64,000 bases of DNA. Source: Actinomycetota bacterium (GTDB lineage Bacteria; Actinomycetota; UBA4738; JACQTL01). Below, piece after piece: positions 9,458-53,330 of this stretch. Positions within the stretch are counted from its first letter, which is position 1. Each line of letters starts with the position of its first letter. Where the stretch lies: the NCBI GenBank assembly GCA_045805265.1, contig JBJMLO010000008.1, positions 128,846 to 192,845 on the forward strand, written 5' to 3'. Both the position numbers and the translations under genes were made by a program. The notes under the pieces were generated by a model, which did no database searches, was not told the origin of the DNA, and was given only the letters and a program-made list of their open reading frames with translations.

Positions 9458-9504
9458 CGAATCCCTCCTGTCCGACGAGAGTGTGTCCCTCAACCCACGG
9501 TCAG

Positions 9505-9521
9505 TGCAAGGTCCGTGCCAA
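9505..9521 (-). promoter_or_regulatory. canonical sigma-54 -24/-12 promoter element (TGGCACG-GACC-TTGCA) directly upstream of the rpoN-like gene
   Basis: The minus strand reads ...GGGGT TGGCACG GACC TTGCA CTGACCGTGGGTTGAGGGACACACTCTCGTCGGACAGGAGGGATTCG GTG. This is a perfect match to TGGCACG-N4-TTGCW. The GC dinucleotide lies about 48 nt upstream of the GTG start, leaving a ~35-nt leader with the AGGAGG site. Confidence 0.55.
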
Positions 9522-9607
9522 CCCCCGGCGGCGTCTCGGCGCTCAGCTCTCGACTTCCCCCTGGACCCGCCGGTATCCTCGGCCGGGTCTCGGATGGAGG
9601 GGAATGA

Positions 9608-12465: not shown

Positions 12466-12493
12466 ACCCGTCCGTCCCGGTGAACGGCCTCAG

Positions 12494-12524
12494 TTTGACA
12501 TGTGACCAACAGGTCACCTATTCT
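12494..12524 (+). promoter_or_regulatory. sigma-70-like promoter with an embedded palindromic operator (GTGACC-AACA-GGTCAC) for a leaderless ArsR-family gene
   Basis: TTGACA sits at 12494-12499. The spacer contains the perfect 6-4-6 palindrome tGTGACCaacaGGTCAcc. A TATTCT -10-like hexamer at 12519-12524 ends 6 nt before the ATG at 12531, which implies a leaderless mRNA. No SD is present. Confidence 0.45.
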
Positions 12525-12530
12525 CCCGGC

Positions 12531-12854
12531 ATGACCGACGATGACCGCGTGTTCCGGGCGCTGGCGGACCCGACGCGGCGTTTCCTGCTCGACCGCCTCT
12601 ACGAGCGCGACGGCCGCACGCTCACGGAGCTCGAGTCCGAGCTGGAGATGTCCCGCTTCGGCGCCATGAAGCACCTGCGCGTCCTGGAGGACGCGGGCCT
12701 CGTCGTCACCCGCAGGTCGGGCCGGGAGAAGCTGCACTTCCTGAACCCCGTGCCGATCCGACTGATCCACGACCGGTGGATCGACAAGTATCGGGAGCGC
12801 CAGGTCTCGGCGCTGGCAGAGCTCAAGAGCGAGCTCGAGAAGGAGACGGGATGA
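12531..12854 (+). CDS. ArsR/SmtB-family HTH transcriptional regulator
   Basis: MTDDDRVFRALADPTRRFLLDRLYERDGRTLTELESELEMSRFGAMKHLRVLEDAGLV (C-terminal part of track ORF 11916..12854). Confidence 0.85.
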   Translation: MTDDDRVFRALADPTRRFLLDRLYERDGRTLTELESELEMSRFGAMKHLRVLEDAGLVVTRRSGREKLHFLNPVPIRLIHDRWIDKYRERQVSALAELKSELEKETG

Positions 12855-13369
12855 CGACCATGACCGAAACGAAGACCACCCAGGTCTACCGGGTGTACAT
12901 CAAGGCGACGCCCCAGGCCATCTGGGACGCCATCACGAAGCCCGAGTGGACCGAGCGGTACGGGTTCGGCGGGCGGGTGGAGTACGAGCTGCGCCCCGGC
13001 GGCTCGTACCGCGTGCCCACGACCGAGGCCATGAAGGAGGCGGGAATCCGGATGGGGTTCGCGACTCCGGAGGTGATGGTCGACGGCGAGGTGATCGAGG
13101 CCGATCCGCCGCGCCGGCTCGTCCAGACCTGGCGGATGCTCATGGACCGGGAGACCGAGGCGGAGGGATTCACCCGCCTGACATATGAGATCGAGGAGAG
13201 CGGGGCCGGCGTGAGCAAGCTCACGCTCATCCACGAGCTCGAAGGCGCCCCGAAGGTGGCCGCCCTGTCGGCCGGCGAGCGCGAGGCCGAGGGGGCCGGC
13301 GGCGGTTGGGCGTGGGTCCTCAGCGACCTGAAGACCCTGCTCGAGACGGGCGAGCGGCTGCAGGGCTGA
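12851..13369 (+). CDS. SRPBCC / Aha1-like (activator of Hsp90 ATPase homolog) domain protein
   Basis: Track ORF 12776..13369 trimmed to the ATG that overlaps the ArsR stop (ATGA). AAGGAG lies upstream. The ArsR plus SRPBCC pairing is a common arrangement. Confidence 0.8.
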   Translation: MTTMTETKTTQVYRVYIKATPQAIWDAITKPEWTERYGFGGRVEYELRPGGSYRVPTTEAMKEAGIRMGFATPEVMVDGEVIEADPPRRLVQTWRMLMDRETEAEGFTRLTYEIEESGAGVSKLTLIHELEGAPKVAALSAGEREAEGAGGGWAWVLSDLKTLLETGERLQG

Positions 13370-13431
13370 GCCCCGACCAACTCGTCGATCTACAGGTTCG
13401 AACGCCACGGCCCACGGGGCCGGATCGACAC

Positions 13432-13470
13432 GGCGGAGACCCCAGCGCGGGCGGGGTCTCCGCCGTTTCG
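13432..13470. terminator. bidirectional intrinsic terminator-like hairpin (GGCGGAGACCCC-agcgcgggc-GGGGTCTCCGCC, then GTTTCG)
   Basis: A perfect 12-bp GC-rich stem lies between convergent stops at 13369 (+) and 13492 (-). Confidence 0.6.
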
Positions 13471-13491
13471 ATCAGCGCCTGGTAGGCCCGA

Positions 13492-14376
13492 TCAGATCCG
13501 GTCCCACTGGATCATGACGAGGCTGGGATTGTCGGACGAGACCTTCACGGGGACGTTCGCCCCGGTGACGAGCTTCGGGGCGTCGTCGGCGGGGACGACC
13601 GCCGCACTCGTCTCCTGGTAGGGCGCCTTCCCCGGGACGTTCACGGCCATCTGCACGGAGAACAGCTTGCTGGCGCCGATGGCCACACCCATGTCCTGGG
13701 CCTGCAGGATGGTCCCCGTCCCGTCGAGGCCAGTGGCGGCGAGCTGCGCCCGCAGCTGGTCGACGTTCCCCTGGCTCGCGACGTTCACGCTGGTGGTCAC
13801 CACCGCCGGCGTGACCATGACGCCGCCGGGCATCACGCCGCCCTGCATCGGCATCGCCGCTCCCGGCATGGCTCCCCCCCACTGCCCGATGCCACCGGTC
13901 ACCTGGGCGCCGCCGTCCCAGTCGATGACCACCTTGCCGGGGTCCTGCTGGTCCACCTTCACCGGCAGGGTCCGCCCCACCGACAGCGAGCCCAGCAGCA
14001 TCAGCGGGATGAACTGCTTGACCTCGATCGGGTAGGGGTTCCGGCCGGGGACGGCCACCATGAGGTTCAACCCGATCTGCGGGTTGTTGTTGAGGTACAT
14101 ACCGGTCTGGGTCATGCCGGTGATCTGGGCCGTCCCCGCCAGGCCGGTCTGGTCGATGCGGTCGGCCTCCGCGGCCTTCTTCCGCGAACCGATCCCGAAC
14201 ACCAGCAGGACGATCCCCACGATGCCGAGGATCACCCCGGTCATGGTGAGCCCGGCGATGCCCGACGACAACCCGAAGACGAAGAAGCCGGCCGACAGCA
14301 CCAATTCGAAGATCGCGGTGCCGATCAGCCAGCCACCCGTGTACTTACCGAACGTGGACGACGTGAACGTAGCCAC
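13492..14376 (-). CDS. membrane protein (two N-terminal TM helices plus a periplasmic Gly/Val/Pro-rich domain), hypothetical
   Basis: Track ORF 13492..14505 trimmed to the GTG (VATFTSSTFGKYTGGWLIGTAIFELVLSAGFFVFGLSSGIAGLTMTGVILGIVGIVLLVFGI...), which is preceded by GGAGGAGGAGG. Confidence 0.7.
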   Translation of the reverse strand: MATFTSSTFGKYTGGWLIGTAIFELVLSAGFFVFGLSSGIAGLTMTGVILGIVGIVLLVFGIGSRKKAAEADRIDQTGLAGTAQITGMTQTGMYLNNNPQIGLNLMVAVPGRNPYPIEVKQFIPLMLLGSLSVGRTLPVKVDQQDPGKVVIDWDGGAQVTGGIGQWGGAMPGAAMPMQGGVMPGGVMVTPAVVTTSVNVASQGNVDQLRAQLAATGLDGTGTILQAQDMGVAIGASKLFSVQMAVNVPGKAPYQETSAAVVPADDAPKLVTGANVPVKVSSDNPSLVMIQWDRI

Positions 14377-37389: not shown

Positions 37390-37611
37390 TTACTTGTCGT
37401 ACGCAGACGGCGACGATCCCGAGTTCTGTCCAGACGTCGCCTCCGACCGCCACCAGTCGGCGCCGGCCATCATCTCGCGAACTTGACTGTCGGTGAGGTC
37501 GGGATGAGCCTCGGCGGTATGCGCCTTGATACGTTCAAAAAGCTCCTCGTCGTCGGCCGCGGTGAAATCGATCCGGTCGTGCGATGGGTCTACGCAGTGG
37601 AATCCACGCAT
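37390..37611 (-). CDS. DUF1059-like small metal-binding protein (73 aa)
   Basis: Track ORF 37390..37698 trimmed to MRGFHCVDPSHDRIDFTAADDEELFERIKAHTAEAHPDL, with AGGAGG 4 nt upstream. Confidence 0.65.
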   Translation of the reverse strand: MRGFHCVDPSHDRIDFTAADDEELFERIKAHTAEAHPDLTDSQVREMMAGADWWRSEATSGQNSGSSPSAYDK

Positions 37612-37696
37612 CGCTCCTCCTTCCCGCGGTCTTGACGGGCCCATTGCCCGGACCGCATCGGTGAGAAGGACGATAAGGGTGCGGCCGGCTCGTATC

Positions 37697-40543
37697 ATGA
37701 GGGAGCTCCCTCAGATCCGGTTGGAACGAGATGCACGTAGTGTGGCGGGCATGGCCGAGTTCTTCGGGCGCCCGCACGAGCTCGAACTGGTTCGCGGAGC
37801 TTTGGCTCGGGCGCGCCGGGAGCGGCGCCCGACCGCCGTGGTTGTGGACGGCGAGCCCGGAGTCGGCAAGAGCAGGCTGATCGACGAGGCCTCAAGCATT
37901 GTTCGGGGGGATCGGGTTGCGGTCTCCGCGTACGAGCCGGAGATGAGCCTGCCCTTCTCCCTCGGCCACGACCTGACCCGTGCGCTCGCGCACTCCTCGC
38001 GCGCGGCTGGGCAGATCCTGGGCCCGATGCTCGCGCCGCAGCCGGGCGGTCAGCGGCCCGACTGGTCGTCCGTGTTCGAGGCGGCTCATCGCGCGGCCGG
38101 CGTCGGCGACTCACTGCCCATCACGATCGACGACTTCCAATGGTGTGATGAGCGATCCACGGCGCTCATCCACTACCTGGTGCGCGGGGCCCAGGCCGAT
38201 GGTGATCCTCTGGCGCTCGTCGTTGGCGGTCGGCGGTCAACGCGCGTGAGCGCGCTCGTCACGTCATTGCAGCGACTACTCGGCGACTGTTTGACGCGGG
38301 TGACGCTCGGACCACTGGACCATCACTCGACAGTGGCGCTCGCGATCGCGGTGAACCCGGAGTTGGATCCTCGGGCCGCAGCGGCGGTCGCCGACCGGTC
38401 CGGCGGCTCTCCTTTCTGGTGCGAGCTCCTCGCCGGGACCCGGAACGTCGACGCTGATGTCAAGCGCATCGTCACCGACCGGCTCTCGACGGCGGGCACC
38501 GATGCGGCGGTACTCCTGGAAACGATCGCGGTGCTCGGGCGGCAGGCGCCGGTCGAGGATCTCATCGCCATCCGAGGCTGGCCGGAGGATCGGCTCACGG
38601 CGGCGCGGGTGGAGCTGGTGACGGCAGGCTTGGGCGTGGAGGAGGGAGCCGCATTCCGGATAGTCCACGATCTCGTGAGAGCAGCCGTGGAGAAAGATCT
38701 CCCCGACGAACGGCGCCGTGACATCCACGCTCGGGTCGCGTCTTGGCTGGAGAGCATCGCCGGCGAGAACGTGACGCTGCTGCTGCGGGCGTCGGAAGCC
38801 AAGAATCGAGCGGGGCTGGACCACCTGCCACTCACCCTCCGGATCGTACGGTCACCGATGCGCAGGCTGGTGGACCTCGAGGGGCTACGGTCGATCGCCG
38901 CTCTCATCGACTCGGTGCCGGCCGGCACGCCGCAGGAGCGCGAGCTGCAAACCGAACTCGCATCCTTGGCCGCGGAGCTCGGTCAGCACGGGCTTGCGAT
39001 GGAGCGTTGGGCACGCATCGCTGACAGGCTGGATGAGCCGCGTGATCGCGCGCGCGCCTGGCTGGGTGCATCCGAGGCGGCACAGCAGCTCGAGAGGGCC
39101 GATGATGCACGCGCACACCTCGAGCGCGCGCGGGGTGCCGGCAGCGACGACCCGGTTTTACTCCTGGAGCTTCAGGCTGCGGACGCAGCGATCACACGGT
39201 GGCTCGAGCATCGCCCGCAGGAAGCGGGGAGCGCGACGATCGCCGCCCTCGGACGCGCCCGCGCGTTGGCCGCTTCGACCGGCGCGAGGGAGGCGCTGGA
39301 ACCACGCCTCCAGAGCGCGTACCAACGCACTCTCGTGCTCGCCTGCGTAGACGCAATGCAGGCGAACGAGCCGGAGAACATTCTGCCCCTGACAGAGGAG
39401 ATGACACGGGTTGCAGCCGGCGCCGGCATCGAGGCATCGCTGCAGGCGAGCCTCCGGCGTGGCTCGGCTCTCACGCTCCTGGGCCGCCTCGCCGAAGCCG
39501 AGGGGCGGCTTGGACCGGCGTGGCTGGAGGCGCGCCGTGCGTCTCTTCCGGGGATCGCTCTGGACATCGGGGTGTGGCTCGCCCAAACGAGGTACATCGC
39601 CGGCCGCCTTATCGAGGCACAGGAGGTGGCCGACGAATGTGAGGCGCTTGCGGAGCGCATCGGCGAATATTCTCGGCAGGCCATGCTCGCGAGGATGTGG
39701 CGGCTGATCATCACGATCTCCGCCGGCGACCAAGACGCCGCACTCGCCGGCCTCCGGGCGCTGTGCGAGAGCGAACGGGATCCTCATCATCGCATCCCCC
39801 TCCATCAGGCCATCGCGCGCTGGCGGTCACGGCTCAACGGAGCCGCGAGCGCCGACGAGGTGCATGCGCGGATCGCCAGCGGCCGGGGGGACATGGAGGA
39901 CGCGCGATGCACCCGATGCGGCCTCGAGTTCATCAGAGCGGCCACCGAATCGCTGGCGCGCATCGGCGCCGTTGCCGAGGCTGTGCGCTGGTTCAAAGAG
40001 GCGGAGCACGCGCCGCCGCGGGGCGACCTTCAAGCGTGGGACCATCTGCGAGCCCGATCGACCCTGGCCGCAGCAGGGCACGGGGATCATGCCTCGCTTG
40101 AAGAAGCCGTCGACATGGCGGACAGACTGGGGATGGGCATCGAATCGATCTGGGCGCGCACGAGCCTCGCGCGCGTGAAGGCGGTCGAGGGCGACACGGC
40201 CGGAGCGGAGACGGTCCTGCGGCTCGCCTCGGCGACCGCCGAGGAAAGGGGAGCCGCGACAGAGCGAGCTCATATCGACCAGCTCCTGCGCCAACTGGGC
40301 GTCCGCACCTGGCGACGCAGGTCGCGCGTACGAGCGACCGGTGATCTCTCCGTCCTGAGTGACCGCGAGCGCGAGATCGCGAACCTCATCACGGGTGGCG
40401 CCAGCAACCCGGATATCGCGCGCACGCTGTTCCTGTCGCGCAAGACGGTGGAGAGACACGTCTCGAGCATCCTGGCGAAGCTTGAAGTAAGGAATCGTGC
40501 CCAGCTTGCGGCCAGGATGGCAACCAGCGATCGGCCCCGCTAG
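37697..40543 (+). CDS. LAL-family (large ATP-binding LuxR-type) transcriptional regulator
   Basis: Track ORF 37526..40543. The N-terminal AAA/NB-ARC region is FFGRPHELELVRGALARARRERRPTAVVVDGEPGVGKSRLIDEA, followed by TPR-like helices and a C-terminal LuxR HTH (SDREREIANLITGGASNPDIARTLFLSRKTVERHVSSILAKL). The start is either the ATG at 37697 or the one at 37751. Confidence 0.8.
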   Translation: MRELPQIRLERDARSVAGMAEFFGRPHELELVRGALARARRERRPTAVVVDGEPGVGKSRLIDEASSIVRGDRVAVSAYEPEMSLPFSLGHDLTRALAHSSRAAGQILGPMLAPQPGGQRPDWSSVFEAAHRAAGVGDSLPITIDDFQWCDERSTALIHYLVRGAQADGDPLALVVGGRRSTRVSALVTSLQRLLGDCLTRVTLGPLDHHSTVALAIAVNPELDPRAAAAVADRSGGSPFWCELLAGTRNVDADVKRIVTDRLSTAGTDAAVLLETIAVLGRQAPVEDLIAIRGWPEDRLTAARVELVTAGLGVEEGAAFRIVHDLVRAAVEKDLPDERRRDIHARVASWLESIAGENVTLLLRASEAKNRAGLDHLPLTLRIVRSPMRRLVDLEGLRSIAALIDSVPAGTPQERELQTELASLAAELGQHGLAMERWARIADRLDEPRDRARAWLGASEAAQQLERADDARAHLERARGAGSDDPVLLLELQAADAAITRWLEHRPQEAGSATIAALGRARALAASTGAREALEPRLQSAYQRTLVLACVDAMQANEPENILPLTEEMTRVAAGAGIEASLQASLRRGSALTLLGRLAEAEGRLGPAWLEARRASLPGIALDIGVWLAQTRYIAGRLIEAQEVADECEALAERIGEYSRQAMLARMWRLIITISAGDQDAALAGLRALCESERDPHHRIPLHQAIARWRSRLNGAASADEVHARIASGRGDMEDARCTRCGLEFIRAATESLARIGAVAEAVRWFKEAEHAPPRGDLQAWDHLRARSTLAAAGHGDHASLEEAVDMADRLGMGIESIWARTSLARVKAVEGDTAGAETVLRLASATAEERGAATERAHIDQLLRQLGVRTWRRRSRVRATGDLSVLSDREREIANLITGGASNPDIARTLFLSRKTVERHVSSILAKLEVRNRAQLAARMATSDRPR

Positions 40544-41358: not shown

Positions 41359-41721
41359 CTACAGTGGTGGGGCGACGCCGAAGGCTTCCTGGATCCTTCG
41401 GAGCTCGCGCATCCTCGGCTCGGTGCGGCCGTTGACCCAGCGGTTCACCGTCTTGAGCGACACGCCGACCGCGCGCGCCGCGGCCTCCTGGGACATGCGC
41501 CGGGCCTTGAGGACTCCGCCCAGCCACACGTCGAATCCCGCCGTGCGGGGCGAGGTGCCCGCGCGCTTCATCGTGCCGCCGGAGACCACGTCCATGGACA
41601 CCGATGCGCCCGCGACGTGGAACCGGAGCGAAAGGTCGCCGTCGCGTCCCCGAAGAAGATCTCGGACCCACCGTTCGGTGACCGGGTCGAGTCCAGGCCC
41701 CTTGACTTCGTGTTCTGCCAT
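41359..41721 (-). CDS. XRE-family HTH transcriptional regulator with a ~60-aa N-terminal domain
   Basis: Track ORF 41359..41784 trimmed to MAEHEVKGPGLDPVTERWVRDLL.... The C-terminus is RRMSQEAAARAVGVSLKTVNRWVNGRTEPRMRELRRIQEAFGV. It is a paralog of 45478..45861. Confidence 0.65.
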   Translation of the reverse strand: MAEHEVKGPGLDPVTERWVRDLLRGRDGDLSLRFHVAGASVSMDVVSGGTMKRAGTSPRTAGFDVWLGGVLKARRMSQEAAARAVGVSLKTVNRWVNGRTEPRMRELRRIQEAFGVAPPL

Positions 41722-41857
41722 GTGGCACCCCCGTACGAGGGGCCAGAGACGACCCCGCATTCCTGTCCACGGAGTGTACGGCAACGAATAGCCTCACGCG
41801 AACCCAACCTCGCAAAAAGGTTCGAGCGGACAGGAAGCGTGCGCAAACGCCGCCGGG

Positions 41858-42999: not shown

Positions 43000-43262
43000 G
43001 AGACCGTCTCCACGTCGTCGGTCCCGGACAGCGCCGCGACCACCGTGACCTGGTTGTGGATCTCGAGATCGGGGGCGACCTCCCGGACGACCTGCGAGAC
43101 CGCCCGCCGCCGCTCGTCAGTGTGCACGGTCCCCGTGACGAACACATGCCCGCCGCGAAGCTTCACGCCGAGCTCCAGCTCGCCGACCCGGGGGTCGTGG
43201 ACCAGAGCCTCGCGGATGCGCTGGATGAGGTAGTGGGGAGCTTCCTCCGCGGGGCGTTCCAT
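42996..43262 (-). CDS. BON-domain protein (88 aa)
   Basis: C-terminal part of track ORF 42996..44513. MERPAEEAPHYLIQRIREALVHDPRVGELELGVKLRGGHVFVTGTVHTDERRRAVSQVVREVAPDLEIHNQVTV. Confidence 0.65.
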   Translation of the reverse strand: MERPAEEAPHYLIQRIREALVHDPRVGELELGVKLRGGHVFVTGTVHTDERRRAVSQVVREVAPDLEIHNQVTVVAALSGTDDVETVS

Positions 43263-43891
43263 CACTTGCCTCCTTCGTCGGGTCCGCGTTCTTCCTCGGC
43301 CACGGCGAACAGCGTCCGCACCGCGGTGGCCGGCACCGCGAGGTCCTGGGACTGGGCGTACACCAGCAGGGACAGGACCCGGTGGACGCCGTGGCGGGCT
43401 CGCCGGAGCACATAGTCCCAATCCAGGTCGTGCCGCGCGATGATCGACAGGGCCTCGGCCCAGTAGGTGGGCGTCTGTTCGCCGAACGCCAGCGCCTTCA
43501 TGACGACGGTGTCCTCGGCGGACACCACGGGGACCGCCACGCCCTCGACGTCCCGCTCGACCACCCGCTCGATCATCTCGTCGTCGAGGTAGACGTCGCC
43601 CGCAGCGCGGAAGATGAGGTCGACCCCGACGCCGTCGCGCATCGCCCTGCGCAGCCAGTGCTCGTCGGTGGTCGGCACGGCTTCGAAACCCTCCCCGACC
43701 AGGGCGGCCAGCGCCGCCTCCGCGTCCTGGGGGCGCACCATGAGGTCGACGTCGGCCGAGGCCGGGTCCCACCGGGGCCGGCCCCACACCACCGCGGCCA
43801 GGCCACCGATCGCGCCGAACGGCAGGTCGCGGGCGGCCAGTGCCTTCACCGCACGCTCCAGGGCGTCGACGAACCTCCCGAGGTCGGGCAC
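43262..43891 (-). CDS. nucleotidyltransferase-like family protein
   Basis: Track ORF 43262..44236 trimmed to the GTG (VPDLGRFVDALERAVKALAARDLPFGAIGGLAAVVWGRPR...DVDLMV...). Confidence 0.65.
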   Translation of the reverse strand: MPDLGRFVDALERAVKALAARDLPFGAIGGLAAVVWGRPRWDPASADVDLMVRPQDAEAALAALVGEGFEAVPTTDEHWLRRAMRDGVGVDLIFRAAGDVYLDDEMIERVVERDVEGVAVPVVSAEDTVVMKALAFGEQTPTYWAEALSIIARHDLDWDYVLRRARHGVHRVLSLLVYAQSQDLAVPATAVRTLFAVAEEERGPDEGGK

Positions 43892-43970
43892 AACACACCT
43901 CGTACCCGGGGCGGCCGAGGCCGATACCTGGCGGCCGTTTCCACGTGCGAGCCCCGGGTACCCCCGTTCC

Positions 43971-44630
43971 GTGACCATCGACGCCGCGGCGGGTCCGCAC
44001 GGTGAGGGCGCGTTCGCGAAGGGGTCCGTCGACGAGGACCGGTTCCTGCGCGTCCTGGACCGGCTCGTGGCCGCGCTGTCGTCGACGGGCGTGCCCTTCG
44101 CGTTCATCGGCGGGATCGCCTCCGCGGTGCTGGGCCGCCCCCGACCGACGGTCGACGTCGACGTCCTGGTCCGGCCCTGGGAGGCCGTCGACGTCATGGG
44201 GCGCCTGCAGGCCGCGGGGTTCGCCACCCAGCGCACCTACCCCCACTGGCTGTTCAAGGCGGAGCGCGACGGCGTGGTCACCGACGTGATCTTCGTCTCC
44301 ACCGGAGACCTGTACCTCGACGACGAGATGGTCGTGCGGGTACAGGACCGGGAGTTCATGGGCCGGAGGCTGCCGGTGGTCGCGCCCGAGGACCTCGTCG
44401 TGATGAAGGCGCTGGCCCACTCCGAGGAGACCCCGCGGTATTGGTACGACGGGCTGTCGATCCTCGCGTGGAACGAGCCCGACTGGGACTACCTGCTCCG
44501 CCGGGCCCGCCACGGGCCGCGCCGGGTCCTGTCGTTCCTGCTGTTCGCCCGGTCGACCGGGCTGGTCATCCCGGGGTCGGCCCTGCGGGCGCTCCGGGAC
44601 GTGATCGAGCGGGGCCGCAGGGCGGCGTGA
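43971..44630 (+). CDS. nucleotidyltransferase-like family protein (paralog of 43262..43891, divergent)
   Basis: Track ORF 43614..44630 trimmed to the GTG at 43971 (...SVDEDRFLRVLDRLVAALSSTGVPFAFIGGIASAVLGRPRPTVDVDVLV...). It shares the DW/DYLLRRARHG..RVLS.L motifs with the minus-strand copy. Confidence 0.6.
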   Translation: MTIDAAAGPHGEGAFAKGSVDEDRFLRVLDRLVAALSSTGVPFAFIGGIASAVLGRPRPTVDVDVLVRPWEAVDVMGRLQAAGFATQRTYPHWLFKAERDGVVTDVIFVSTGDLYLDDEMVVRVQDREFMGRRLPVVAPEDLVVMKALAHSEETPRYWYDGLSILAWNEPDWDYLLRRARHGPRRVLSFLLFARSTGLVIPGSALRALRDVIERGRRAA

Positions 44631-44633
44631 GGC

Positions 44634-45371
44634 TCACCCGGAGTGGCCGACCTCCGTGAGGAACCGGTCGTACTCGTCGAGGATCACCCGGTAGCACTCG
44701 CAGGACGCCGCCGCGAGCCCGTCGGCATCGAGCACCTCGATCCTGCCGCGCCGGTACCGGATCACCCCGGCCTTCTGCAGCAGCCCGGCGGCGATGGTGA
44801 CCGTGGCCCGGCGGACGCCGAGCATCTCGGCCAGGAACTCCTGGGTCAGGTCGAACTCGTCCGCCCCCACCTGCTGCCGGGTCGTGAGGAGCCACCGCGC
44901 GCATCGCATCTCGAGGGGGTGCAGCCGGTTGCACGCCACCTCTTGCGCCGTCGAGACGACGAGCACGAGGGCGTAGCGCTCCAGGAGGTCCCGGAGGGGC
45001 CCCGCGGCCTGGCTGGCCTCCCGGAACGTGCCGGCGTCCACCTCGAGCGCATCGCCGGCCACCTGGGAGATCGCCCGCTGGCTCGGCATCGACCGGGACC
45101 CCAGGAAATGGTGCAGCCCGACCATGCCCTCCCTGCCCACGGTCGCGAACTCCACCATGTCGCCGTCGTTCATCACGGTGACCAGCGACAGCACGCCCGA
45201 CAGCGGGAAGTACACGTGCGGGGTCTCCTGGCCCGGCTCCCACAGGACGCGTCGCTGCTCGAGGTGCACCACCCGCGACCCGGCCGCGATCATCCCCCGG
45301 GCCTCGACGGGCAGCGCCCCGAGCAGTGCGTTCTGCGTTTCGGCGTCCCCGGTCGGTCCGACCGCGTCCAT
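44634..45371 (-). CDS. Crp/Fnr-family transcriptional regulator (cNMP-binding domain plus C-terminal HTH)
   Basis: Track ORF 44634..45371. GGGAGG lies upstream. ...RRATVTIAAGLLQKAGVIRYRRGRIEVLD. Confidence 0.8.
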   Translation of the reverse strand: MDAVGPTGDAETQNALLGALPVEARGMIAAGSRVVHLEQRRVLWEPGQETPHVYFPLSGVLSLVTVMNDGDMVEFATVGREGMVGLHHFLGSRSMPSQRAISQVAGDALEVDAGTFREASQAAGPLRDLLERYALVLVVSTAQEVACNRLHPLEMRCARWLLTTRQQVGADEFDLTQEFLAEMLGVRRATVTIAAGLLQKAGVIRYRRGRIEVLDADGLAAASCECYRVILDEYDRFLTEVGHSG

Positions 45372-46097: not shown

Positions 46098-46559
46098 TTG
46101 GATCAAGCTGACGCCCCGGCCGGCGCGTCCGTCGGCGGTATCGACTTTCTCTCCGGGCTGCTCGCAAGGCTGCAGACGATGTTCGGAGCCGTGGTGCTGG
46201 ATGCCCGGGACGAGCTGGACGGCTCGATCGTCGTCGACGTGCAGCTCGAGGCCGGCCGGGCGCTCGAGGTGTATCGGGCCCACATCCGCAACTCGGTGCA
46301 CGACCAGCTGGCCATCTCGGCGCTGCTCGTCGAGACCAGCGCGTCCATCGTGGGCCGGACCGGCGCCCTGGTGGAACGCCTCCGGCTGGCCAGAGAGCAG
46401 CGCAGCGTTGCGGTGTCGAACCTCAGGCAGTTGCGGGCGACGCTTGCTCAACGGCGAGACCTGCTGCGGACGGCGGACCTTTCCTCAGGCCTGTCCCGGG
46501 GCGGGATCCATCGTCAGGATGACGCCGGTGATCCCGCCGCCGGCGTCGACCATGGGTGA
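46098..46559 (+). CDS. hypothetical protein (weak call)
   Basis: Track ORF 46098..46559. TTG start with GGGAGG 9 nt upstream. The composition is protein-like, but its 3' end overlaps the convergent CheR-like gene by ~75 nt. Confidence 0.3.
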   Translation: MDQADAPAGASVGGIDFLSGLLARLQTMFGAVVLDARDELDGSIVVDVQLEAGRALEVYRAHIRNSVHDQLAISALLVETSASIVGRTGALVERLRLAREQRSVAVSNLRQLRATLAQRRDLLRTADLSSGLSRGGIHRQDDAGDPAAGVDHG

Positions 46560-48338
46560 GCACGCTACCCGGCAGACGATCCGCTGACCGCGCCGGGTCA
46601 CGGCGTCGAGCTCGATCGGCTCCTGTGACTGACCGCCCAGTGCGCCCAGCAGCGATGCCTTGAGCTCCCCCACCGGGAGCCCGATGTCGAGATCCAGGAA
46701 CGGCTGACCCCGCACCTCGTCCTCGGTGAACCCCCACAGGTCTCGAGCCCGATCGTTCCACATCATCACCCGGAGCTCTCCGTCCACCACGGCGACCCCC
46801 GAGCTGACGCTGGCCAGGATCGAGGTCATGAAGGCATTGGCCAGGTGCACCTCGTCGGTACGCCGCCGGACCTCCTCGTTGATGGTCTCGAGCTCCTCGT
46901 TGGTCGAGCGGAGCTCCTCGTTGGTGGTCTCGAGCTCCTCGTTGGTGGACTGGAGCTCCTCGTTGGTGGTCTCCAGCTCCTCGTTGGTGGACTGGAGCTC
47001 CTCGTTGGTGGTCTCCAGCTCCTCGTTGGTCGACTGGAGCTCCTCCATGGCGGTCTCGAGCTCCTGGTTCGCGTGCTCGAAGGCCTGCCGGAGATCCCGG
47101 TAGCTGGTCACCTCGTGGACGGCTACGCTCACGCCGAGGAGCCCGCCCCCCCGGTCCTCGAGCGGCACCAGCTCCACTTCGAGCCACATCGTCTCGCCCT
47201 CGAGCTGCCACTGGACGTCCTCCAGCCGAATGGGCTCGCGATCGGCCTGGATGCGCTGGATGTGCGAGCGCAGCTCCACGGGCCGGAACGACACGTCGAG
47301 GTCCTGCAGGGGCCGTCCGAGGTCCTGGGGGTTCAGGCCGAACAGCTTCCGGGCCCGAGCGTTGGCCTGGGTGAGCATCCCGTTGCGATCGACGACCAGC
47401 TGGGCGACCGGTCCGAGCTCGAACGCGGACTCACGGCCCCGAAGGTGACTGGAGATGGAACCCCCCTCCTCGTAGGCGTTGGAGATGAGCATAAGCCGCT
47501 CACGCACGTCCTCATCCGAGGTTGCCTTCATGAACACCCGGCGCCGGAGGTCGACGGGCGAGAAGGAGCGCAGGTGCGTGAACAGCATCTCGGCCTTCCC
47601 CAGGACCAGGAACCCCCCCTCGTTCAGGGCGAAATAGAAGTTGCCCATCACGTGGGTCTGGGTCTCGGAGTTCAGGTACATCAGCGTGTTGCGGCACATC
47701 AGGAGGTCGATGCGGGAGATCGGGGCGTCCTGGACCAGGTCGTGCCGCCCGAAGATCATGGCCTGCCGGAGCTCCTTCGAGACCATGTACGAGCCGTCCG
47801 ACCCGCGGTCGAGGTACCGCGAGAGCAGGACCGGCGGGACGTCCTCAACCTGGCGCGCCGTGTACACCGCGGCCCGGGCCTGCGCCAGCGCGTCCTCGTC
47901 GACGTCGGTGGCGTAGATCTTCACCCGCTCCCGGAACCGGCCGGTCCCCAGCTGCTCGGCGAAGAGCATGGCCAGGCTGTAGGGCTCCTCGCCCGACGCG
48001 CACCCCGGCAGCCACAGCCGGATGGTCTGGTCCTCGCCGCGCGCCTCGACGACGCGGGGGACCACCTCGTCCGCCAGGAAGTCCCAGATCGCCGGGTCGC
48101 GGAAGAAGTTGGTGACGTTGATCAGGATGCAGTTGAACAGCTCGGTGAACTCGTCGGGGTCCACCTGGAGCCGGTCGAGGTAGTCGGCCGCGCCGTCGAT
48201 GCCGACGGTCTCCATGCGCTTGTGGATCCGCCGGGACAGGCTGGAGCGCTTGTACCCGGTGAAGTCGAACCCCCGGCTCTCCTTCAGGTAGCGAAGGAGG
48301 GCCTCGAGCTCCTCCTCGGTCCGGCCCTGTTCGCTCAT
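46485..48338 (-). CDS. CheR-type protein-glutamate O-methyltransferase fused to PAS domains and a coiled-coil repeat region
   Basis: Track ORF 46485..48338. CheR_N plus SAM-MTase (FFRDPAIWDFLADEVVP...LWLPGCASGEEPYSLAML), then PAS, then 14-aa tandem repeats (EELETTNEELQSTN) x ~5, then a second PAS. Confidence 0.85.
   Translation of the reverse strand: MSEQGRTEEELEALLRYLKESRGFDFTGYKRSSLSRRIHKRMETVGIDGAADYLDRLQVDPDEFTELFNCILINVTNFFRDPAIWDFLADEVVPRVVEARGEDQTIRLWLPGCASGEEPYSLAMLFAEQLGTGRFRERVKIYATDVDEDALAQARAAVYTARQVEDVPPVLLSRYLDRGSDGSYMVSKELRQAMIFGRHDLVQDAPISRIDLLMCRNTLMYLNSETQTHVMGNFYFALNEGGFLVLGKAEMLFTHLRSFSPVDLRRRVFMKATSDEDVRERLMLISNAYEEGGSISSHLRGRESAFELGPVAQLVVDRNGMLTQANARARKLFGLNPQDLGRPLQDLDVSFRPVELRSHIQRIQADREPIRLEDVQWQLEGETMWLEVELVPLEDRGGGLLGVSVAVHEVTSYRDLRQAFEHANQELETAMEELQSTNEELETTNEELQSTNEELETTNEELQSTNEELETTNEELRSTNEELETINEEVRRRTDEVHLANAFMTSILASVSSGVAVVDGELRVMMWNDRARDLWGFTEDEVRGQPFLDLDIGLPVGELKASLLGALGGQSQEPIELDAVTRRGQRIVCRVACSPMVDAGGGITGVILTMDPAPGQA
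46860..47050 (-). repeat. tandem 42-bp coding repeats (coiled-coil ELETTNEELQSTNE units) inside the CheR-PAS gene
   Basis: The plus strand reads ctcctcgttggtggtctccagctcctcgttggtggactggag repeated several times. Confidence 0.6.
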
Positions 48339-48925
48339 GGCTGTCCCCCGGACACGAGCGAGACCAGCGCGCCGGGAATCTCCGCCAGCGACAGGACGAA
48401 GTCCACCGAGCCCGTGTCGATCGCCGCCTGGGGCATCCCGGAGAACTCCGCCGCCTCGTCCTGGGCGATCACCGTGCCCCCCATCTGCTTCACCGCCTTC
48501 GCCCCCATCGCGCCGTCGCTCCCCGTCCCCGACAGGATGACCGCAATCGCGCGCTGACGGAACCCGGCCGCGAGCGATTCGAACAACAGGTCGGCCGACG
48601 GACGCACGAAGTGCACCAGCTCGGTCTCGGTCAGCTCGAGCACGCCGTCCGAGTTCACCAGCAGATGGTGGTTCGGCGGGGCCACGAACACCTGCCCGGG
48701 CTCGAGCCGGTCGCCCGCTCGCGCCTCCTTGACCTCCAGGGGGATGCGACGATCGAGGATCTCGGCCATGACGCTGCGGTGCCGCGGGTCGAGGTGCTGC
48801 ACGACCAGCACGGGCGCCGGGAAGTCCGATTGCAGCTCCTTGAGAACTGTGCTCAGCGCGCTGAGCCCGCCCGCCGACGCCGCCATCCCCACGACGTCGA
48901 ACCCGCCCCCGGCTCCCCCGTCCAC
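48335..48925 (-). CDS. CheB-type methylesterase catalytic-domain protein (no receiver domain)
   Basis: Track ORF 48335..48925. FDVVGMAASAGGLSAL...VVQHLDP...GTGSDGA. Its stop overlaps the CheR start (ATGA). Confidence 0.8.
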   Translation of the reverse strand: MDGGAGGGFDVVGMAASAGGLSALSTVLKELQSDFPAPVLVVQHLDPRHRSVMAEILDRRIPLEVKEARAGDRLEPGQVFVAPPNHHLLVNSDGVLELTETELVHFVRPSADLLFESLAAGFRQRAIAVILSGTGSDGAMGAKAVKQMGGTVIAQDEAAEFSGMPQAAIDTGSVDFVLSLAEIPGALVSLVSGGQP

Positions 48926-48926
48926 G

Positions 48927-50057
48927 TCAGCTTCCCGTGTCCTGCTGTTCCCGCGCCTCCGCTTCCTCGGAGCGCTTCCCGGTGGCCGGATCGGCCGGGA
49001 GGCCGGCCCCGGCCGGGACCAGCACCTGCCCGGTCAGCGCCGCGCGCAGGATCGTGGCCCGCTCCCGGGAAGCCCGGGCCTGCCGCTCGAACCGCGTGGC
49101 GGTGATGGCCTGACCCAGCTCCCGGGCCCGGCCGGCCAGCCGGCCCTGGAGGCTGCCGCTCTCCTCCAGCGAGCGGATGCCCGCCCAGATCGCGGCCTCC
49201 AGGGAGTCGGACTGCGCCGACAGCAGGCCGGCCGGCGAGTAGGCGTGCCCGACCCGGCACCGGTACCGGACCAGCTGCCCGTCCCGCACCTCCCACAGGA
49301 CCCCGCTGCACTCGGGACACGTGAACCCGCTCGGCTCCCCGGCGAGGTCGGTCTGTGCGATCGGGGCCTCGACCTCCACGATGTCGAGCTCCTGGTCGTC
49401 GTCCACCACTGGCTCCTCCCCGCTCCTCGGACGGGGCTCCGCGGCGAGCCGCGCGAGCACGCTCCCCATCTTCGCCAGCCCGACCACGTGGTCGACCGGC
49501 ACGCTGGCGATCGCCGCCCGCGCCATGCCGTCGAACAGCGCGTCGTCGGGGTCGAGCACGACGGCGGTCCCGCCGCGCTCCCGGATCCGGCCCAGGCCCT
49601 GTGAACCGTCGTCCAGGGCGCCGGACAGCACGACGCCCATCACCCGCGGCCCGTACGCCGCCGCGGCCGACCGGAACAGAGGATCGATCGCCGGCCGCAT
49701 GCCGTTCTCCCTCGGACCGGCGACGAGCTTGATGTGCCCGCGCTTCACCAGCATGTGCGCGCCGGGCGGCGCGATCGCGATCCGATTCCGCTCGATGGGC
49801 TGTCCGTCGACCGCATGCGCCGCGCGCAGCGGTCCCACCCTGGACAGGATGGCCGGCAGGACGCTCGTCCCGACGGCGGGCATGTGCATGACGACGAGCA
49901 CGGCCGCGTCGAGGTCGGCCGGCAGCTCCCGGGCCACCTCGCTCAGGGATTCCACGCCGCCGGCGGAGGCGCCCATCACGATGATGTCGTGATCGGGCAT
50001 CGTGCTTTGAGGGTACCCCCCTCGGGCGCGCCCGGACACCGCGTGCCCGGCACTCAC
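48927..50057 (-). CDS. CheB-type methylesterase domain protein with a C-terminal Cys-containing (CPECSG...YRCRVGH) extension
   Basis: Track ORF 48927..50057. IIVMGASAGGVESLSEV...VVMHMPA.... The GTG at 50057 overlaps the SDR stop (GTGA). An alternative start is the ATG at 50000. Confidence 0.7.
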   Translation of the reverse strand: MSAGHAVSGRARGGYPQSTMPDHDIIVMGASAGGVESLSEVARELPADLDAAVLVVMHMPAVGTSVLPAILSRVGPLRAAHAVDGQPIERNRIAIAPPGAHMLVKRGHIKLVAGPRENGMRPAIDPLFRSAAAAYGPRVMGVVLSGALDDGSQGLGRIRERGGTAVVLDPDDALFDGMARAAIASVPVDHVVGLAKMGSVLARLAAEPRPRSGEEPVVDDDQELDIVEVEAPIAQTDLAGEPSGFTCPECSGVLWEVRDGQLVRYRCRVGHAYSPAGLLSAQSDSLEAAIWAGIRSLEESGSLQGRLAGRARELGQAITATRFERQARASRERATILRAALTGQVLVPAGAGLPADPATGKRSEEAEAREQQDTGS

Positions 50058-51103
50058 CCCGCGTGGAGCTGCAGGTCCTCCGCCGCGCGGTCGCCCAGCG
50101 CGATCAGCGGGTCGGGAACCCCGCCCCGGCTGTCCACGCCCGCGCGGCGGTCCGTTCCGATCCCATCGGGCGACGGCAGCAGGCGCGACACCAGGGACAG
50201 GGCGCGAGCCGTGGTCGCCGGGGCCAGCCCGTGGATGCGAACGAGGGCCTTGGCCTGCGGCGTCAGGACGATCTCCGCCCTGCGCACCGCGATGGCCTCG
50301 ACGATCCGCCGCGCCGCCCGGTCGGCGTCCATCGAGACCACCGGCAGGGAGGACGCCAGGCTGAACCAGGCGAACTCCTCCCGGTGACGGGACTTGAACA
50401 GGGCCTGGAGGTGCGAGCCGGTCCGCATCAGGCCCGGCACCACCGTCGTCACCGAGATGCCGTGGGGCGCGAGCTCCGCGCGAAGGCCCTCGGAGAGACC
50501 GACCGCGGCGAACTTCGCGGCACAGTACGGCAGCAGGTGGGGCATGCTGATCCTTCCGCCGATCGACGTCACGGTGGCGATGCGGCCCTCCCCCCGATCC
50601 CGCATGTGCGGCAGCACTGCCAGGACGGGCCGGAGGACGCCCCAGAACATGACGTCCATGGCCTCCGCGAAGTCCTCCTGGGTCTGGGCCTCGAGTGGCC
50701 CCACCTGGACGACCCCCGCGTTGTTGACCAGCACGTCGATCGCGCCGAAGGCGTCGAGCGCCCGCTGGACGAGGCGATCGACGTCCTCCTGGCGGGAGAC
50801 GTCAGCAGGCACGGCCTCCACGGAACCGGGCCCCTCCACCCGGAGCCGGTGGGCGGCGGTCTCGAGCGTCTCCGCGTCCCGGCCGCAGATCACGAGGTCC
50901 GCGCCGAGCTCGGCGAACCGCCGGGCCATGGCGAACCCCAGCCCCCGCGACGCGCCGGTGACGAGCACCGTGCGGTCCTCGAACGCGGTGGCCGCGGCCC
51001 GTGCCCCCCGCAGCATCCGGAGCGCGGGGACGCCGGCCACGGCGCCCGCGGTGAGCGACGCGGCCAGCGAGGAGCTTCCGTCGCCGTTCGCTGACGTGCG
51101 CAT
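50054..51103 (-). CDS. short-chain dehydrogenase/reductase (SDR) family oxidoreductase
   Basis: Track ORF 50054..51103. TVLVTGASRGLG...NNAG...YCAAKFA. The start is either the ATG at 51103 (GGAGGG upstream) or the internal ATG at 51016. Confidence 0.8.
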   Translation of the reverse strand: MRTSANGDGSSSLAASLTAGAVAGVPALRMLRGARAAATAFEDRTVLVTGASRGLGFAMARRFAELGADLVICGRDAETLETAAHRLRVEGPGSVEAVPADVSRQEDVDRLVQRALDAFGAIDVLVNNAGVVQVGPLEAQTQEDFAEAMDVMFWGVLRPVLAVLPHMRDRGEGRIATVTSIGGRISMPHLLPYCAAKFAAVGLSEGLRAELAPHGISVTTVVPGLMRTGSHLQALFKSRHREEFAWFSLASSLPVVSMDADRAARRIVEAIAVRRAEIVLTPQAKALVRIHGLAPATTARALSLVSRLLPSPDGIGTDRRAGVDSRGGVPDPLIALGDRAAEDLQLHAG

Positions 51104-51191: not shown

Positions 51192-53330
51192 CTAGCTCGG
51201 CGATGGCGGCGCGGGCTCGGATTCCTCGTCGTCGTCGCGGCCTCCGGGGCCCTCCTGCTGGCGGAACTCCTCCGCCCGGGATTCGGTCGGCTCGCCCCGG
51301 TGGATCGCCTGCGTCTCCTTCTCCAGCTCCTCGTCGACGCGAGGGTTGTGCTTGTCGCTTCCTCGGTCCATCGCGACCCCCTGCTGTCGTTCCTCCTCTC
51401 CGCGATGTACCCGGGACCGGGCGGGCGAACCTCGGAGGGCGATGGCGATCCACCCGCCCGCGGCCAGGGCGCCGACGACCCCGAGGGCCGCGAGGCCGTG
51501 GAGGCGCACGCCGGCCCGGTCGGCCGCGGTCCCGCCCAGGACCAGGACCGCCACGCCCAGCGCGGGAGCCACCGGCAGGCGGACGCGCGGCGGCAGCAGC
51601 GCCGCCGACCAGCCCGACCCGACGGCCGTCGTCAGACCGACCGACCCCAGGGTGAGCAGCGCCAGCAGGAAGACCGACGGGGGACCCGGGATGGACGGCG
51701 CCGCGAACGGACCGGCCGGGAGAGGCCCCCGGAGCACGGCGACGCCGGGCGCGATCTCCGAGCCCGGCCTCGCCGCCGCCAGCCGAGGGAACGAACGATC
51801 GAGGCTCGACAGCGCGATCACGGCCGGGTCGCGCCGAGCAAGGTCGCGGGTCCCGCTCCAGAACCGGGACGACCCGCGGTCGAACCGTTCCTGGCCCCGA
51901 AGGGTCGGCCGGTCCGCGAGCAGCCGGCCGTAGTCCCCGACGTACACCGCGACGGTCGCGATGCGGTCGGTGTCGACGGAGAGCCGGATCCAGTGGTCGG
52001 CCAGGATCGCGTCGACGTCCGGGCGGAAGGTTCCGGTGTCGACGAGCAGGATCGCGGGCCGTCCCTCCGGCAGGCCGTCCACGTACGCGGCGGCGGCGCG
52101 GACCTGCCGGAGCTCGGCCTCGTCGATGGTCGGCTGGGTCTTCCACCACGCCGAGGCGGAGGCGGCCACGGTGCCGGCGGCGCCCGCGGCCACCAGCAGC
52201 GTCCCGAGCGCGAGGCCGGCCCGCCGCGGCCCGCCGCGGCCTCGGGCCCTCCCCGCCCGGGCCAGCCCCCCGGCTGCCGCGATCACGCCCGCCGCCGCCA
52301 GCAGGGGGAGCGCGAGCGCGAACTCCAGCACCCGGTGGGCCGGGGCCGACGCGCCCGCCTCCAGCGCCGCCACCGCGAGCACGGGCGTGGCCGCCCACAG
52401 CACGAGGAAGACCAGCGCGCGGCTGGGCATGCGGCTCGGCCGGGGGTCGCCGGCCACGGCCGCGACGCCCACCGCCGCGGCCGGCGCCGCCACCGGCCAC
52501 CACGTGTCCGGCAGGGCCTGGTGGAGCTTGGTCAGAAACCCGTGCCGCGACAGGCCGGGGAACGACGGGGAGGCCGGGGCGAGGGCCAGCGCCGCGGCGC
52601 CGACCGCCGCCCCACCGGCCACCGCGCCGAGCGCGCGGACGGCCGGCGTGCGCGCCCAGGGGGTCCCGGCCCTCCTGGCCCGGAGGCTCTCCGGCACCAC
52701 CGCGATGCCGAGCGCCGCCAGCAACACACCGAGGAGCGCCGCGAAGCTCCAGTGGATGACGGCGCCGGAACCGAGCAGCAGCGCGGCCGCGACCATCGTC
52801 CGCCGCCCGTCGGCCGCGAGCAGCACGGCCACCGCCGCGCCGACCGCCACCACCGACAGGAGGAGGCTGTCGGCGTGTCCCCCGGCCATGAGCGCCACCA
52901 GCGGCGAGGCCCCGACCGCCAGCCCGAACAGGGGCGCCTGCCACGCCGGACGCCGCAGGCAGGCCCGGGCGAACCCGGCGGCCCCGGCGGCGATCATGAC
53001 CGCGGCCACCGCCGGGAACACCATGGCCAGCCGGAACGGCGACGCGCCGAGGGCGGCCGACCACAGGTCGACCAGCACCGGGTACCCGGGCCGGTCCGCC
53101 GTGACGGACACGCCGTGGGGAACGCTCGAGAGCGCGGCCATCCCCCGGTCGGCCACCAGTCGCGCCCGCCACACGTATTTCGGCGTGTCGTAGCCGACCG
53201 GCACCCGCAGGTGGTGGAACACGTACAGCGACAGGAACACCCCGGCGACCGCGACGAGCATGGCGGCGGCGAGCGCCCGCGCTTGCCAACGCGGCCCGGC
53301 GCCCTCCGGGCGGAGGCGGGTGGAGCTCAC
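51192..53330 (-). CDS. large polytopic membrane protein (712 aa; possibly a GT-C-like glycosyltransferase) with a hydrophilic acidic C-terminal tail
   Basis: Track ORF 51192..53330, GTG start. More than 12 predicted TM helices. The tail is MDRGSDKHNPRVDEELEKETQAIHRGEPTESRAEEFRQQEGPGGRDDDEESEPAPPSPS. Confidence 0.65.
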   Translation of the reverse strand: MSSTRLRPEGAGPRWQARALAAAMLVAVAGVFLSLYVFHHLRVPVGYDTPKYVWRARLVADRGMAALSSVPHGVSVTADRPGYPVLVDLWSAALGASPFRLAMVFPAVAAVMIAAGAAGFARACLRRPAWQAPLFGLAVGASPLVALMAGGHADSLLLSVVAVGAAVAVLLAADGRRTMVAAALLLGSGAVIHWSFAALLGVLLAALGIAVVPESLRARRAGTPWARTPAVRALGAVAGGAAVGAAALALAPASPSFPGLSRHGFLTKLHQALPDTWWPVAAPAAAVGVAAVAGDPRPSRMPSRALVFLVLWAATPVLAVAALEAGASAPAHRVLEFALALPLLAAAGVIAAAGGLARAGRARGRGGPRRAGLALGTLLVAAGAAGTVAASASAWWKTQPTIDEAELRQVRAAAAYVDGLPEGRPAILLVDTGTFRPDVDAILADHWIRLSVDTDRIATVAVYVGDYGRLLADRPTLRGQERFDRGSSRFWSGTRDLARRDPAVIALSSLDRSFPRLAAARPGSEIAPGVAVLRGPLPAGPFAAPSIPGPPSVFLLALLTLGSVGLTTAVGSGWSAALLPPRVRLPVAPALGVAVLVLGGTAADRAGVRLHGLAALGVVGALAAGGWIAIALRGSPARSRVHRGEEERQQGVAMDRGSDKHNPRVDEELEKETQAIHRGEPTESRAEEFRQQEGPGGRDDDEESEPAPPSPS

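Follow-up and report, generated by a model that had tools for sequence, protein, structure and literature searches.

What do chemotaxis-type methylation enzymes act on where no chemoreceptor is encoded beside them? The question is raised by a gene cluster in a 64,000-nucleotide stretch of contig JBJMLO010000008.1 from an Actinomycetota bacterium, which we refer to as the window. Five co-directional open reading frames (ORFs) on its minus strand encode a polytopic membrane protein, an SDR protein, two methylesterases (CheB2 and CheB1) and a CheR methyltransferase fused to two PAS domains (CheR-PAS). GC content around the locus, computed in 2-kb windows, amounts to 68-77%, and GC content at third codon positions (GC3) is 0.92-0.94 in all five ORFs, as in real genes of the genome. 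ORFs and Pfam domains agree on the CheB, CheB and CheR-PAS genes which an initial annotation had placed here and interpreted as a methylation module outside chemotaxis. Judged by domain architecture, the locus is a split (unfused) member, without an output domain, of a widespread CheB/CheR-PAS family. Comparison within this family narrows the likely substrate to one short segment, the helix of Glu-Glu heptads between the two PAS domains.

Methylation enzymes without a chemotaxis cluster

We analyzed the domain content of the three enzymes. CheB_methylest was the sole Pfam domain found in CheB1 (E 6.7e-62, amino acids (aa) 12-187) and in CheB2 (E 2.6e-50), so that both methylesterases are receiver-less as had been annotated; Response_reg matched neither of them, and the NCBIfam CheB models matched both proteins in the models' C-terminal halves only. 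Pairwise alignment places the Ser164/His190/Asp286 triad of E. coli CheB at S17, H44 and D137 of CheB1 and at S31, H58 and D150 of CheB2. Both enzymes are predicted to be active.

The 617-aa CheR-PAS protein is a 100% match to P0001, listed by NCBI as 'MAG: CheR family methyltransferase [Actinomycetota bacterium]'. Pfam domains were detected in the order CheR_N (aa 9-61, E 2e-16), CheR (aa 74-266, E 1.2e-51, spanning model positions 1-193 of 195), PAS_4 (aa 308-412) and PAS (aa 503-611), and CheR chains in the PDB match at E 3.9e-35. Residues K46, R53, R98, E129, D154, R230 and Y235 of E. coli CheR are kept in the pairwise alignment, and R56 is conservatively substituted by Lys. K46, R53 and R56 presumably lie on the basic helix of CheR which is thought to face the acidic methylation helix of the receptor. 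CheR is likewise predicted to be active.

Six-frame ORFs of the window were searched by phmmer with E. coli CheA, CheW, Tar, Tap, CheY, CheZ, MotA, MotB and FlhB. Only the two CheBs and CheR were matched by E. coli chemotaxis and motility proteins; CheA, CheW, methyl-accepting chemotaxis proteins (MCPs), CheY and flagellar genes yielded nothing at E<=1 in the 64 kb, at the limited sensitivity of single-sequence phmmer. The earlier statement that the window holds no chemotaxis core genes was therefore confirmed. An alternative is that these are conventional adaptation enzymes acting on MCPs encoded elsewhere in the genome: the catalytic domains of CheR and CheB are intact and near canonical structures, our view covers 64 kb of a metagenome-assembled genome, on a contig of 261 kb, and F1 or F5 chemosensory systems are present in some actinobacterial lineages (PMC10746217). 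We consider this very improbable, since neither CheB carries a receiver, CheR is fused to a PAS-coil-PAS unit, no che, mot or flh gene is found in the window, and in 80 related loci the module travels as CheB plus CheR-PAS alone. These best 80 loci include Mycolicibacterium, Streptomyces, Nocardia and Amycolatopsis, among which the module is common. These genera are not known to have flagella or chemotaxis. Receiver-less CheBs, the CheR-PAS fusion, the lack of che and flagellar genes in the 64 kb and this occurrence together support the placement of the module outside chemotaxis; what had been missed initially is that it is a standard member of a huge annotated family.

Compared with the canonical chemotaxis adaptation system, the module has homologous catalytic domains with conserved catalytic residues. 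It differs in having no receiver on either CheB and no CheA, CheW or MCP gene within the window. CheR is also joined to an accessory domain, and used outside flagellar chemotaxis, in CheR-TPR proteins such as WspC and FrzF of alternative-cellular-function chemosensory pathways (PMC3447774). Their clusters, however, include MCP, CheA and CheW, none of which accompany the module studied here.

Membership of the CheB/CheR-PAS family

At least 8,000 relatives of CheR-PAS in the databases are about 620 aa long and have the same Pfam architecture; nearly all of the best 120 measure 600-640 aa and carry the same Pfam set. NCBI names them 'CheR family methyltransferase' and JGI 'two-component system, chemotaxis family, CheB/CheR fusion protein', a family which we take to be KEGG K13924. 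A scan of one genome per species gave more than 600 pattern matches, from which the best 80 loci were used for all comparisons. They include actinobacteria (Actinoplanes, Amycolatopsis, Mycolicibacterium senegalense, Mycobacterium, Streptomyces, Nocardia, Pseudonocardia), cyanobacteria (Nostoc, Anabaena, Cylindrospermum), Gemmatimonadota, Planctomycetes, Dormiibacterota, Bacteroidales, Verrucomicrobia and a Methanolobus archaeon.

In the 15 most distant loci (31-37% identity) CheB is fused ahead of CheR. The same heptad array between the PAS domains was present in all 13 fused loci whose ORFs were read. Pfam analysis of eight fused relatives gave CheB-CheR_N-CheR-PAS-coil-PAS_10, followed by nothing, by HWE_HK or by HisKA-HATPase-receiver. 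The window locus shares with these fusion proteins the succession of CheR_N and CheR, PAS, a coil of EEL heptads and PAS, as well as the receiver-less CheB catalytic domain. Unlike them, it has two stand-alone CheB genes upstream of CheR-PAS, and the product of one carries a zinc-ribbon/hairpin tail. The window protein has no kinase or receiver output, as is the case for four of the eight fused relatives scanned.

The features that define the family are thus present: CheR_N plus CheR, an adjoining receiver-less CheB and PAS domains flanking an E-E-L-x-[ST]-x-N coiled coil. A C-terminal histidine-kinase or receiver output, which is optional in the family, is absent from the window protein. None of the tests run argues against the assignment.

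The distribution of CheB genes was determined by tblastn of the window proteins against the 80 loci, two of which lack upstream sequence and are uninformative. A CheB gene adjoins or is fused to CheR-PAS in 73 of the 78 informative loci: 15 are fused, about 32 have a CheB2-type gene, about 21 a CheB1-type gene and about four both, and in five no CheB was found within 10 kb. CheB1-type genes are usually located directly upstream of CheR-PAS. Both types occur together in L002, L005, L019 and L035, as in the window. The closest relative (L083, 86% identity) and L084 (64%) have CheB1 upstream and neither CheB2 nor the SDR or membrane protein gene. By these comparisons, conservation throughout the family is limited to CheB, CheR, the pair of PAS domains and the acidic helix of heptads.

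The window locus itself adds nothing new, as annotation already covers thousands of loci equivalent to it. The family is among the largest groups of chemotaxis-type enzymes outside chemotaxis, and we found no study of its methylation target. A functional study of CheB/CheR-PAS proteins was not found in the full-text literature either, where cheBR fusions appear in gene counts or annotations.

An acidic heptad helix connects the PAS domains

The structure of CheR-PAS was predicted with AlphaFold2 from a 51-sequence alignment (mean pLDDT confidence score 85). The model shows the CheR domain (aa 1-271), a disordered tether at aa 279-299 with pLDDT <50, a first PAS fold (aa 300-409), one uninterrupted helix of 100 residues (aa 411-510; block pLDDT 83-94) and a second PAS fold (aa 514-612). 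According to both Pfam and AlphaFold2 the protein terminates after the second PAS domain, with no histidine-kinase or receiver output.

Most of the helix is taken up by a tandem repeat. Tandem Repeats Finder reported a 42-bp period with 4.8 copies and 92% matches at 46868-47069. In the protein, QELETAM is followed by three perfect EELQSTNEELETTN units, a variant unit EELRSTNEELETIN and finally EEVRRRT, the 14-residue (42-bp) unit being made up of heptads EELQSTN/EELETTN. Five perfect repeats had been counted initially, which is an overcount: the register used for that count, ELETTNEELQSTNE, gives two perfect, two near-perfect and one partial copy, and the EELQSTNEELETTN register gives three perfect copies. 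Within the 70-aa array (aa 425-494), 24 acidic residues face 4 basic ones. Only Leu in position 3 and Asn in position 7 of the heptad carry the 3/4 spacing of a core, and a coiled coil formed from this helix would therefore alternate Leu and Asn layers beneath a very acidic surface.

We then compared the heptad across the family. A logo of the 120 best matches showed E at 98%, E at 100%, L at 92%, Q/E, S/T, T at 72% and N at 88%, percentages that are somewhat inflated by the selection of windows for heptad resemblance. Raw sequences of distant relatives (31-37% identity) display the same pattern as the logos, E-E-[LMI]-x-[STA]-x-[NK] being kept in archaea, Bacteroidales and proteobacteria at this level of identity. 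Homologues of 50-58% overall identity have nearly the same array. Going by these sequence comparisons, the array, whose heptad pattern recurs in every relative examined, marks the family as a whole and is not a local expansion; it is of ancient origin, is strongly constrained by purifying selection across phyla and is not a hypervariable repeat.

Array length varies in whole units. By strict count there are 5, 7, 9, 11 or 13 heptads across the family, i.e. steps of 14 residues, and P0003 of locus L083, a relative of 86% identity, carries three 42-bp units compared to four in the window. Judging from these counts the array is able to gain or lose units, with one length predominating. Of the 'expandable coding repeat' suggested earlier, these whole-unit differences stand; the constraint across phyla and the prevailing length speak against it. 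An array that is mainly an unstable expandable coding repeat, with length polymorphism as its biological point, would fit the mutual identity of the 42-bp units (37-41 of 42 nt; 40-41 of 42 among the three perfect ones), the unit missing in the 86%-identical relative, the family range of 5 to 13 heptads and the many database entries over this region that are truncated by frameshifts. Most of the 120 closest relatives, however, have the same array length and a total protein length near 620 aa, and the sequence of the unit is retained from phylum to phylum. That the units are so alike at nucleotide level is moreover largely expected from strong codon bias acting on identical peptides, the GC3 of the CheR-PAS gene being 0.94. 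We therefore regard this explanation as highly improbable.

A homology search with the helix alone retrieved only entries of 110-175 aa, and the seven inspected are frameshift-truncated pieces of the CheR-PAS family. The repeat region seems to be prone to frameshifts, either as sequencing or assembly errors or as real pseudogenes. Fragments P0241, P0300, P0309, P0337, P0339 and P0349 are located on long contigs and run from the end of the first PAS domain through the array and then out of frame.

The linker helix as a possible substrate of CheR and CheB

Several observations point to the linker helix as a candidate methyl-accepting segment. Within the conserved core it alone resembles the targets of CheR and CheB, being an acidic heptad helix that bears pairs of Glu. 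These Glu-Glu pairs show no less conservation than the core Leu, which is unexpected for the surface of a purely structural coil. The heptads read EE-x-x-[ST]-T, a relaxed form of the classical Glu-Glu-X-X-Ala-Ser/Thr site: only with Ala relaxed to Ala/Ser/Thr, as EE-x-x-[AST]-[ST], are there seven tandem matches in the array, and Tar has one match in the strict form. The canonical system likewise has an acidic heptad helix on which small residues come after Glu-Glu pairs, as in ALEETAAS of Tar. Finally, CheR is held beside the helix by a flexible covalent linker, which recalls receptor-tail tethering. In MCPs the CheR tether is a C-terminal pentapeptide. A flexible tether keeping the enzyme near its presumed substrate would thus be common to both, in the form of a covalent linker in our AlphaFold2 model.

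Taking sequence, model and the chemoreceptor analogy together, we suggest that the locus may encode a self-contained sensor module in which CheR and CheB add methyl groups to, and remove them from, Glu-Glu pairs in the linker helix of the module itself. We hold this reading tentatively, at a little below an even chance. The linker helix would form a dimeric coiled coil, and the repeated Glu-Glu pairs of the heptad E-E-L-Q/E-S/T-T-N would serve as substrate of the module's own enzymes. CheR would neutralise them by methyl-esterification, and CheB1 and CheB2 would strip the methyl groups, with the zinc-ribbon/hairpin tail possibly docking CheB2 onto the coiled coil. Methylation might tune the stability or register of the very acidic, marginally stable linker with its Asn/Leu core, so that coupling between the two PAS domains changes. 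The outcome would be a memory or adaptation for the sensor, similar to that of chemoreceptors but without CheA feedback. Both CheBs being receiver-less, it would be left to the substrate conformation to provide any feedback. The signal might then be passed on to lineage-specific partners, for which the XRE-type helix-turn-helix (HTH) protein, the Crp-like regulator and the small 153-aa protein are candidates in the window, and STAS-RsbW-like proteins, GAF-ANTAR proteins and fused histidine kinases in other lineages.

A number of points weigh against self-methylation, in addition to the inflated logo percentages mentioned above. The 10-residue receptor consensus [ASTG]2-x2-[EQ]2-x2-[ASTG]2 has no match in CheR-PAS, as opposed to four in Tar, no Pfam MCPsignal match was obtained in CheR-PAS at E<=0.01, and the helix does not represent an MCP signalling domain. 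Methylation helices of chemoreceptors are found in antiparallel four-helix bundles, whereas a single long helix is predicted here. The docking role of the CheB2 tail is purely inferred, and it is only by inference that we liken the working of the module to chemoreceptor adaptation. The full-text literature yielded neither an experiment nor a paper in support of self-methylation.

Alternatively, CheR-PAS might methylate, and the CheBs demethylate, a separate protein, encoded nearby or elsewhere, that is not an MCP, with the coil only dimerising and relaying PAS signals that switch the methyltransferase. The misfit of the array to the full receptor methylation consensus is compatible with this, and in the short form without an output domain methyltransferase activity could itself be the output. 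Regulators also adjoin the module, XRE and Crp here and STAS-HATPase_c_2 and GAF-ANTAR elsewhere. We nevertheless judge a separate substrate to be unlikely, though worth keeping in view, because conservation across the family was seen for none of the candidate targets. Moreover, fused relatives carry histidine-kinase outputs, and the methyltransferase is therefore not the terminal output in them. Dimerisation alone would also leave the near-invariant surface Glu-Glu, Ser/Thr and Asn unexplained from archaea to actinobacteria.

Methylation of the own linker helix would have wider consequences. CheB/CheR-PAS proteins might constitute a second, MCP-independent class of methyl-accepting sensor, a PAS-coil-PAS receptor with a tethered methyltransferase and esterases, with memory stored as Glu methyl esters and a CheB targeted by its tail; this broader proposal we regard as possible but doubtful. 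If true, adaptation by reversible glutamate methylation would not be confined to chemoreceptor arrays, and many non-motile bacteria and archaea would possess a methylation-based sensory adaptation that operates in the absence of CheA, CheW or MCP.

A zinc-ribbon/hairpin tail on CheB2

The Cys-containing C-terminal extension noted in CheB2 (FTCPECSG...YRCRVGH) is indeed present, and its pattern C-P-x-C-x-G ... C-R-x-G-H is invariant in 40 homologues. The invariant residues are C228, P229, C231, G233, C248, R249, G251 and H252. AlphaFold2 prediction of CheB2 (40 sequences, mean pLDDT 84) gave the esterase at aa 1-187, a disordered linker (188-220), a beta zinc-ribbon (222-252) with strands at 222-248, and a helical hairpin (256-323) made up of helices 256-294 and 298-323. 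In the hairpin E268, A270, W272, R276, L278, E279 and E280, the last five of which form the motif W-x3-R-x-L-E-E, are invariant or nearly so.

No Pfam model matches the tail, and Pfam yields nothing besides CheB in this protein. The tail was not seen by sequence in any solved structure in the PDB. In a Foldseek search of the PDB with the whole CheB2 model, in which the tail was not queried alone, the catalytic CheB domain was the sole match. In contrast to this lack of annotation, 4,486 representative protein clusters match the tail at E<=1e-3. Of 10 sampled matches four contain a CheB domain, and Pfam identifies nothing else in any of the 10; many short matches resemble gene fragments. The tail seems to represent a CheB-associated domain that has not been described, and it is singled out here as a likely targeting module. 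Among the tail matches (P0361-P0510) there are also some of 220-350 aa without a recognisable CheB domain.

Cyanobacterial chains of 540-556 aa (P0126, P0130, P0139, P0141) unite a CheB2-type esterase and the zinc-ribbon/hairpin with a second esterase of CheB1 type. This fusion in one chain suggests that the two types of esterase are functionally linked.

Gene boundaries and neighbouring genes

The features of the locus and its surroundings are compiled in Table 1.

Table 1. Positions of the CheB/CheR-PAS module, its domains and neighbouring genes (window coordinates unless related loci are named).
Feature	Position	Strand	Basis or remark
CheR-PAS-coiled coil-PAS protein, 617 aa	46485-48338	minus	ORF list, Pfam
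CheR_N + CheR (aa 9-266)	47541-48314	minus	Pfam
PAS domain 1 (aa 303-412)	47103-47432	minus	PAS_4 and PAS_10 matches
Linker helix (aa 411-510), proposed methyl-accepting	46809-47108	minus	AlphaFold2
Heptad array within linker helix (aa 425-494)	46857-47066	minus	Sequence
PAS domain 2 (aa 503-611), no output domain after it	46506-46832	minus	Pfam PAS, PAS_9
CheB1, 196 aa, catalytic domain alone	48335-48925	minus	ORF list, Pfam
CheB2	ORF 48927-50057 (376 aa, from GTG 50057); likely gene 48927-50000 (357 aa)	minus	
Predicted zinc-ribbon + helical-hairpin tail of CheB2 (aa 221-323 of 357)	49032-49340	minus	Alignment, AlphaFold2
SDR	50054-51103	minus	Upstream of CheB2
712-aa polytopic membrane protein	51192-53330	minus	Upstream of SDR
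153-aa ORF, convergent	46098-46559	plus	75-nt overlap with 3' end of CheR-PAS gene
XRE-type HTH protein, likely about 155 aa	45478-45945 (listed ORF to 46167)	minus	Pfam HTH_3
Crp-like regulator	44634-45371		Downstream of XRE-type HTH gene; Pfam cNMP_binding + HTH_Crp_2
STAS-HATPase_c_2 or GAF-ANTAR neighbour loci	L008, L010, L017, L019, L021, L031, L035 (about 9150-9990); L052-L060 (about 11850-13550)		

The gene junctions were read directly. The CheB1 stop and the CheR start overlap as ATGA, so that the 4-nt overlap described for this block holds for CheB1/CheR; it does not hold for CheB2 and CheB1, where 1 nt lies between the stop codon and the GTG start. Overlap of the SDR stop with CheB2, on which the stated coupling of the block to the SDR gene depends, exists solely for the most upstream GTG of the CheB2 ORF. 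The true start is probably ATG 50000, since NCBI calls a 357-aa protein (P0121) and nearly all homologues begin with MPxHD (MPDHD in the window). This start leaves a gap of 53 nt to the SDR stop instead of an overlap.

Functional coupling to the SDR and membrane protein genes is not supported by the comparison of loci either. Neither gene adjoins the module in any of the 80 loci, nor in L083 or L084, and on these grounds both were rejected as partners; the proposal that the acidic tail of the membrane protein is the methylated substrate falls with them. The 712-aa protein itself shows only a weak match to DUF6541 (E 0.006), and its C-terminal tail is acidic, with many Glu and Asp residues.

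A conserved output partner was sought by all-against-all clustering of the ORFs in the 80 loci, which gave lineage-restricted neighbours only: GAF-ANTAR in 17 loci, STAS-HATPase_c_2 in 16 and Crp-like regulators in a few. Streptomyces, Kribbella and Nocardia have one or two GAF-ANTAR genes downstream of CheR-PAS. A fused STAS-HATPase_c_2 (RsbW-like) gene, often placed between CheB2 and CheR-PAS, occurs in Mycobacterium, Mycolicibacterium, Amycolatopsis and Umezawaea. The GAF-ANTAR and STAS-HATPase_c_2 neighbours may be lineage-specific outputs of the module.

Common neighbours in the lineage of the window are the 153-aa ORF, the XRE-type HTH protein and the Crp-like regulator. L083 keeps the HTH/Crp gene order and L084 keeps the HTH gene; most of the 80 loci are without them. 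The 153-aa ORF has a GC3 of 0.84 and no Pfam match. It is probably a real gene specific to this lineage, since genes are called at the same position in L083 (84%) and L084 (37%).

Small XRE-type HTH proteins are encoded twice in the window: the protein listed in Table 1 has a paralogue at 41359-41784 on the minus strand with a similar C-terminus (RTVGRWARGQTQPRMRDL versus KTVNRWVNGRTEPRMREL). Two copies in the same relative positions are likewise found in L083. Two nucleotidyltransferase-like ORFs (NTP_transf_5/DUF2204) are listed on opposite strands with heavy overlap, at 43262-44236 (minus) and 43614-44630 (plus). Their shorter equivalents in L083, of 221 and 209 aa, diverge without such an overlap, and the overlap in the window is therefore probably an artefact of starting each ORF at its first start codon. 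About 6 kb downstream of the module, at 37526-40543 on the plus strand, a 1005-aa protein with an N-terminal AAA_16 and a C-terminal LuxR/GerE HTH domain is encoded, which is a large ATP-binding regulator of the LuxR family.

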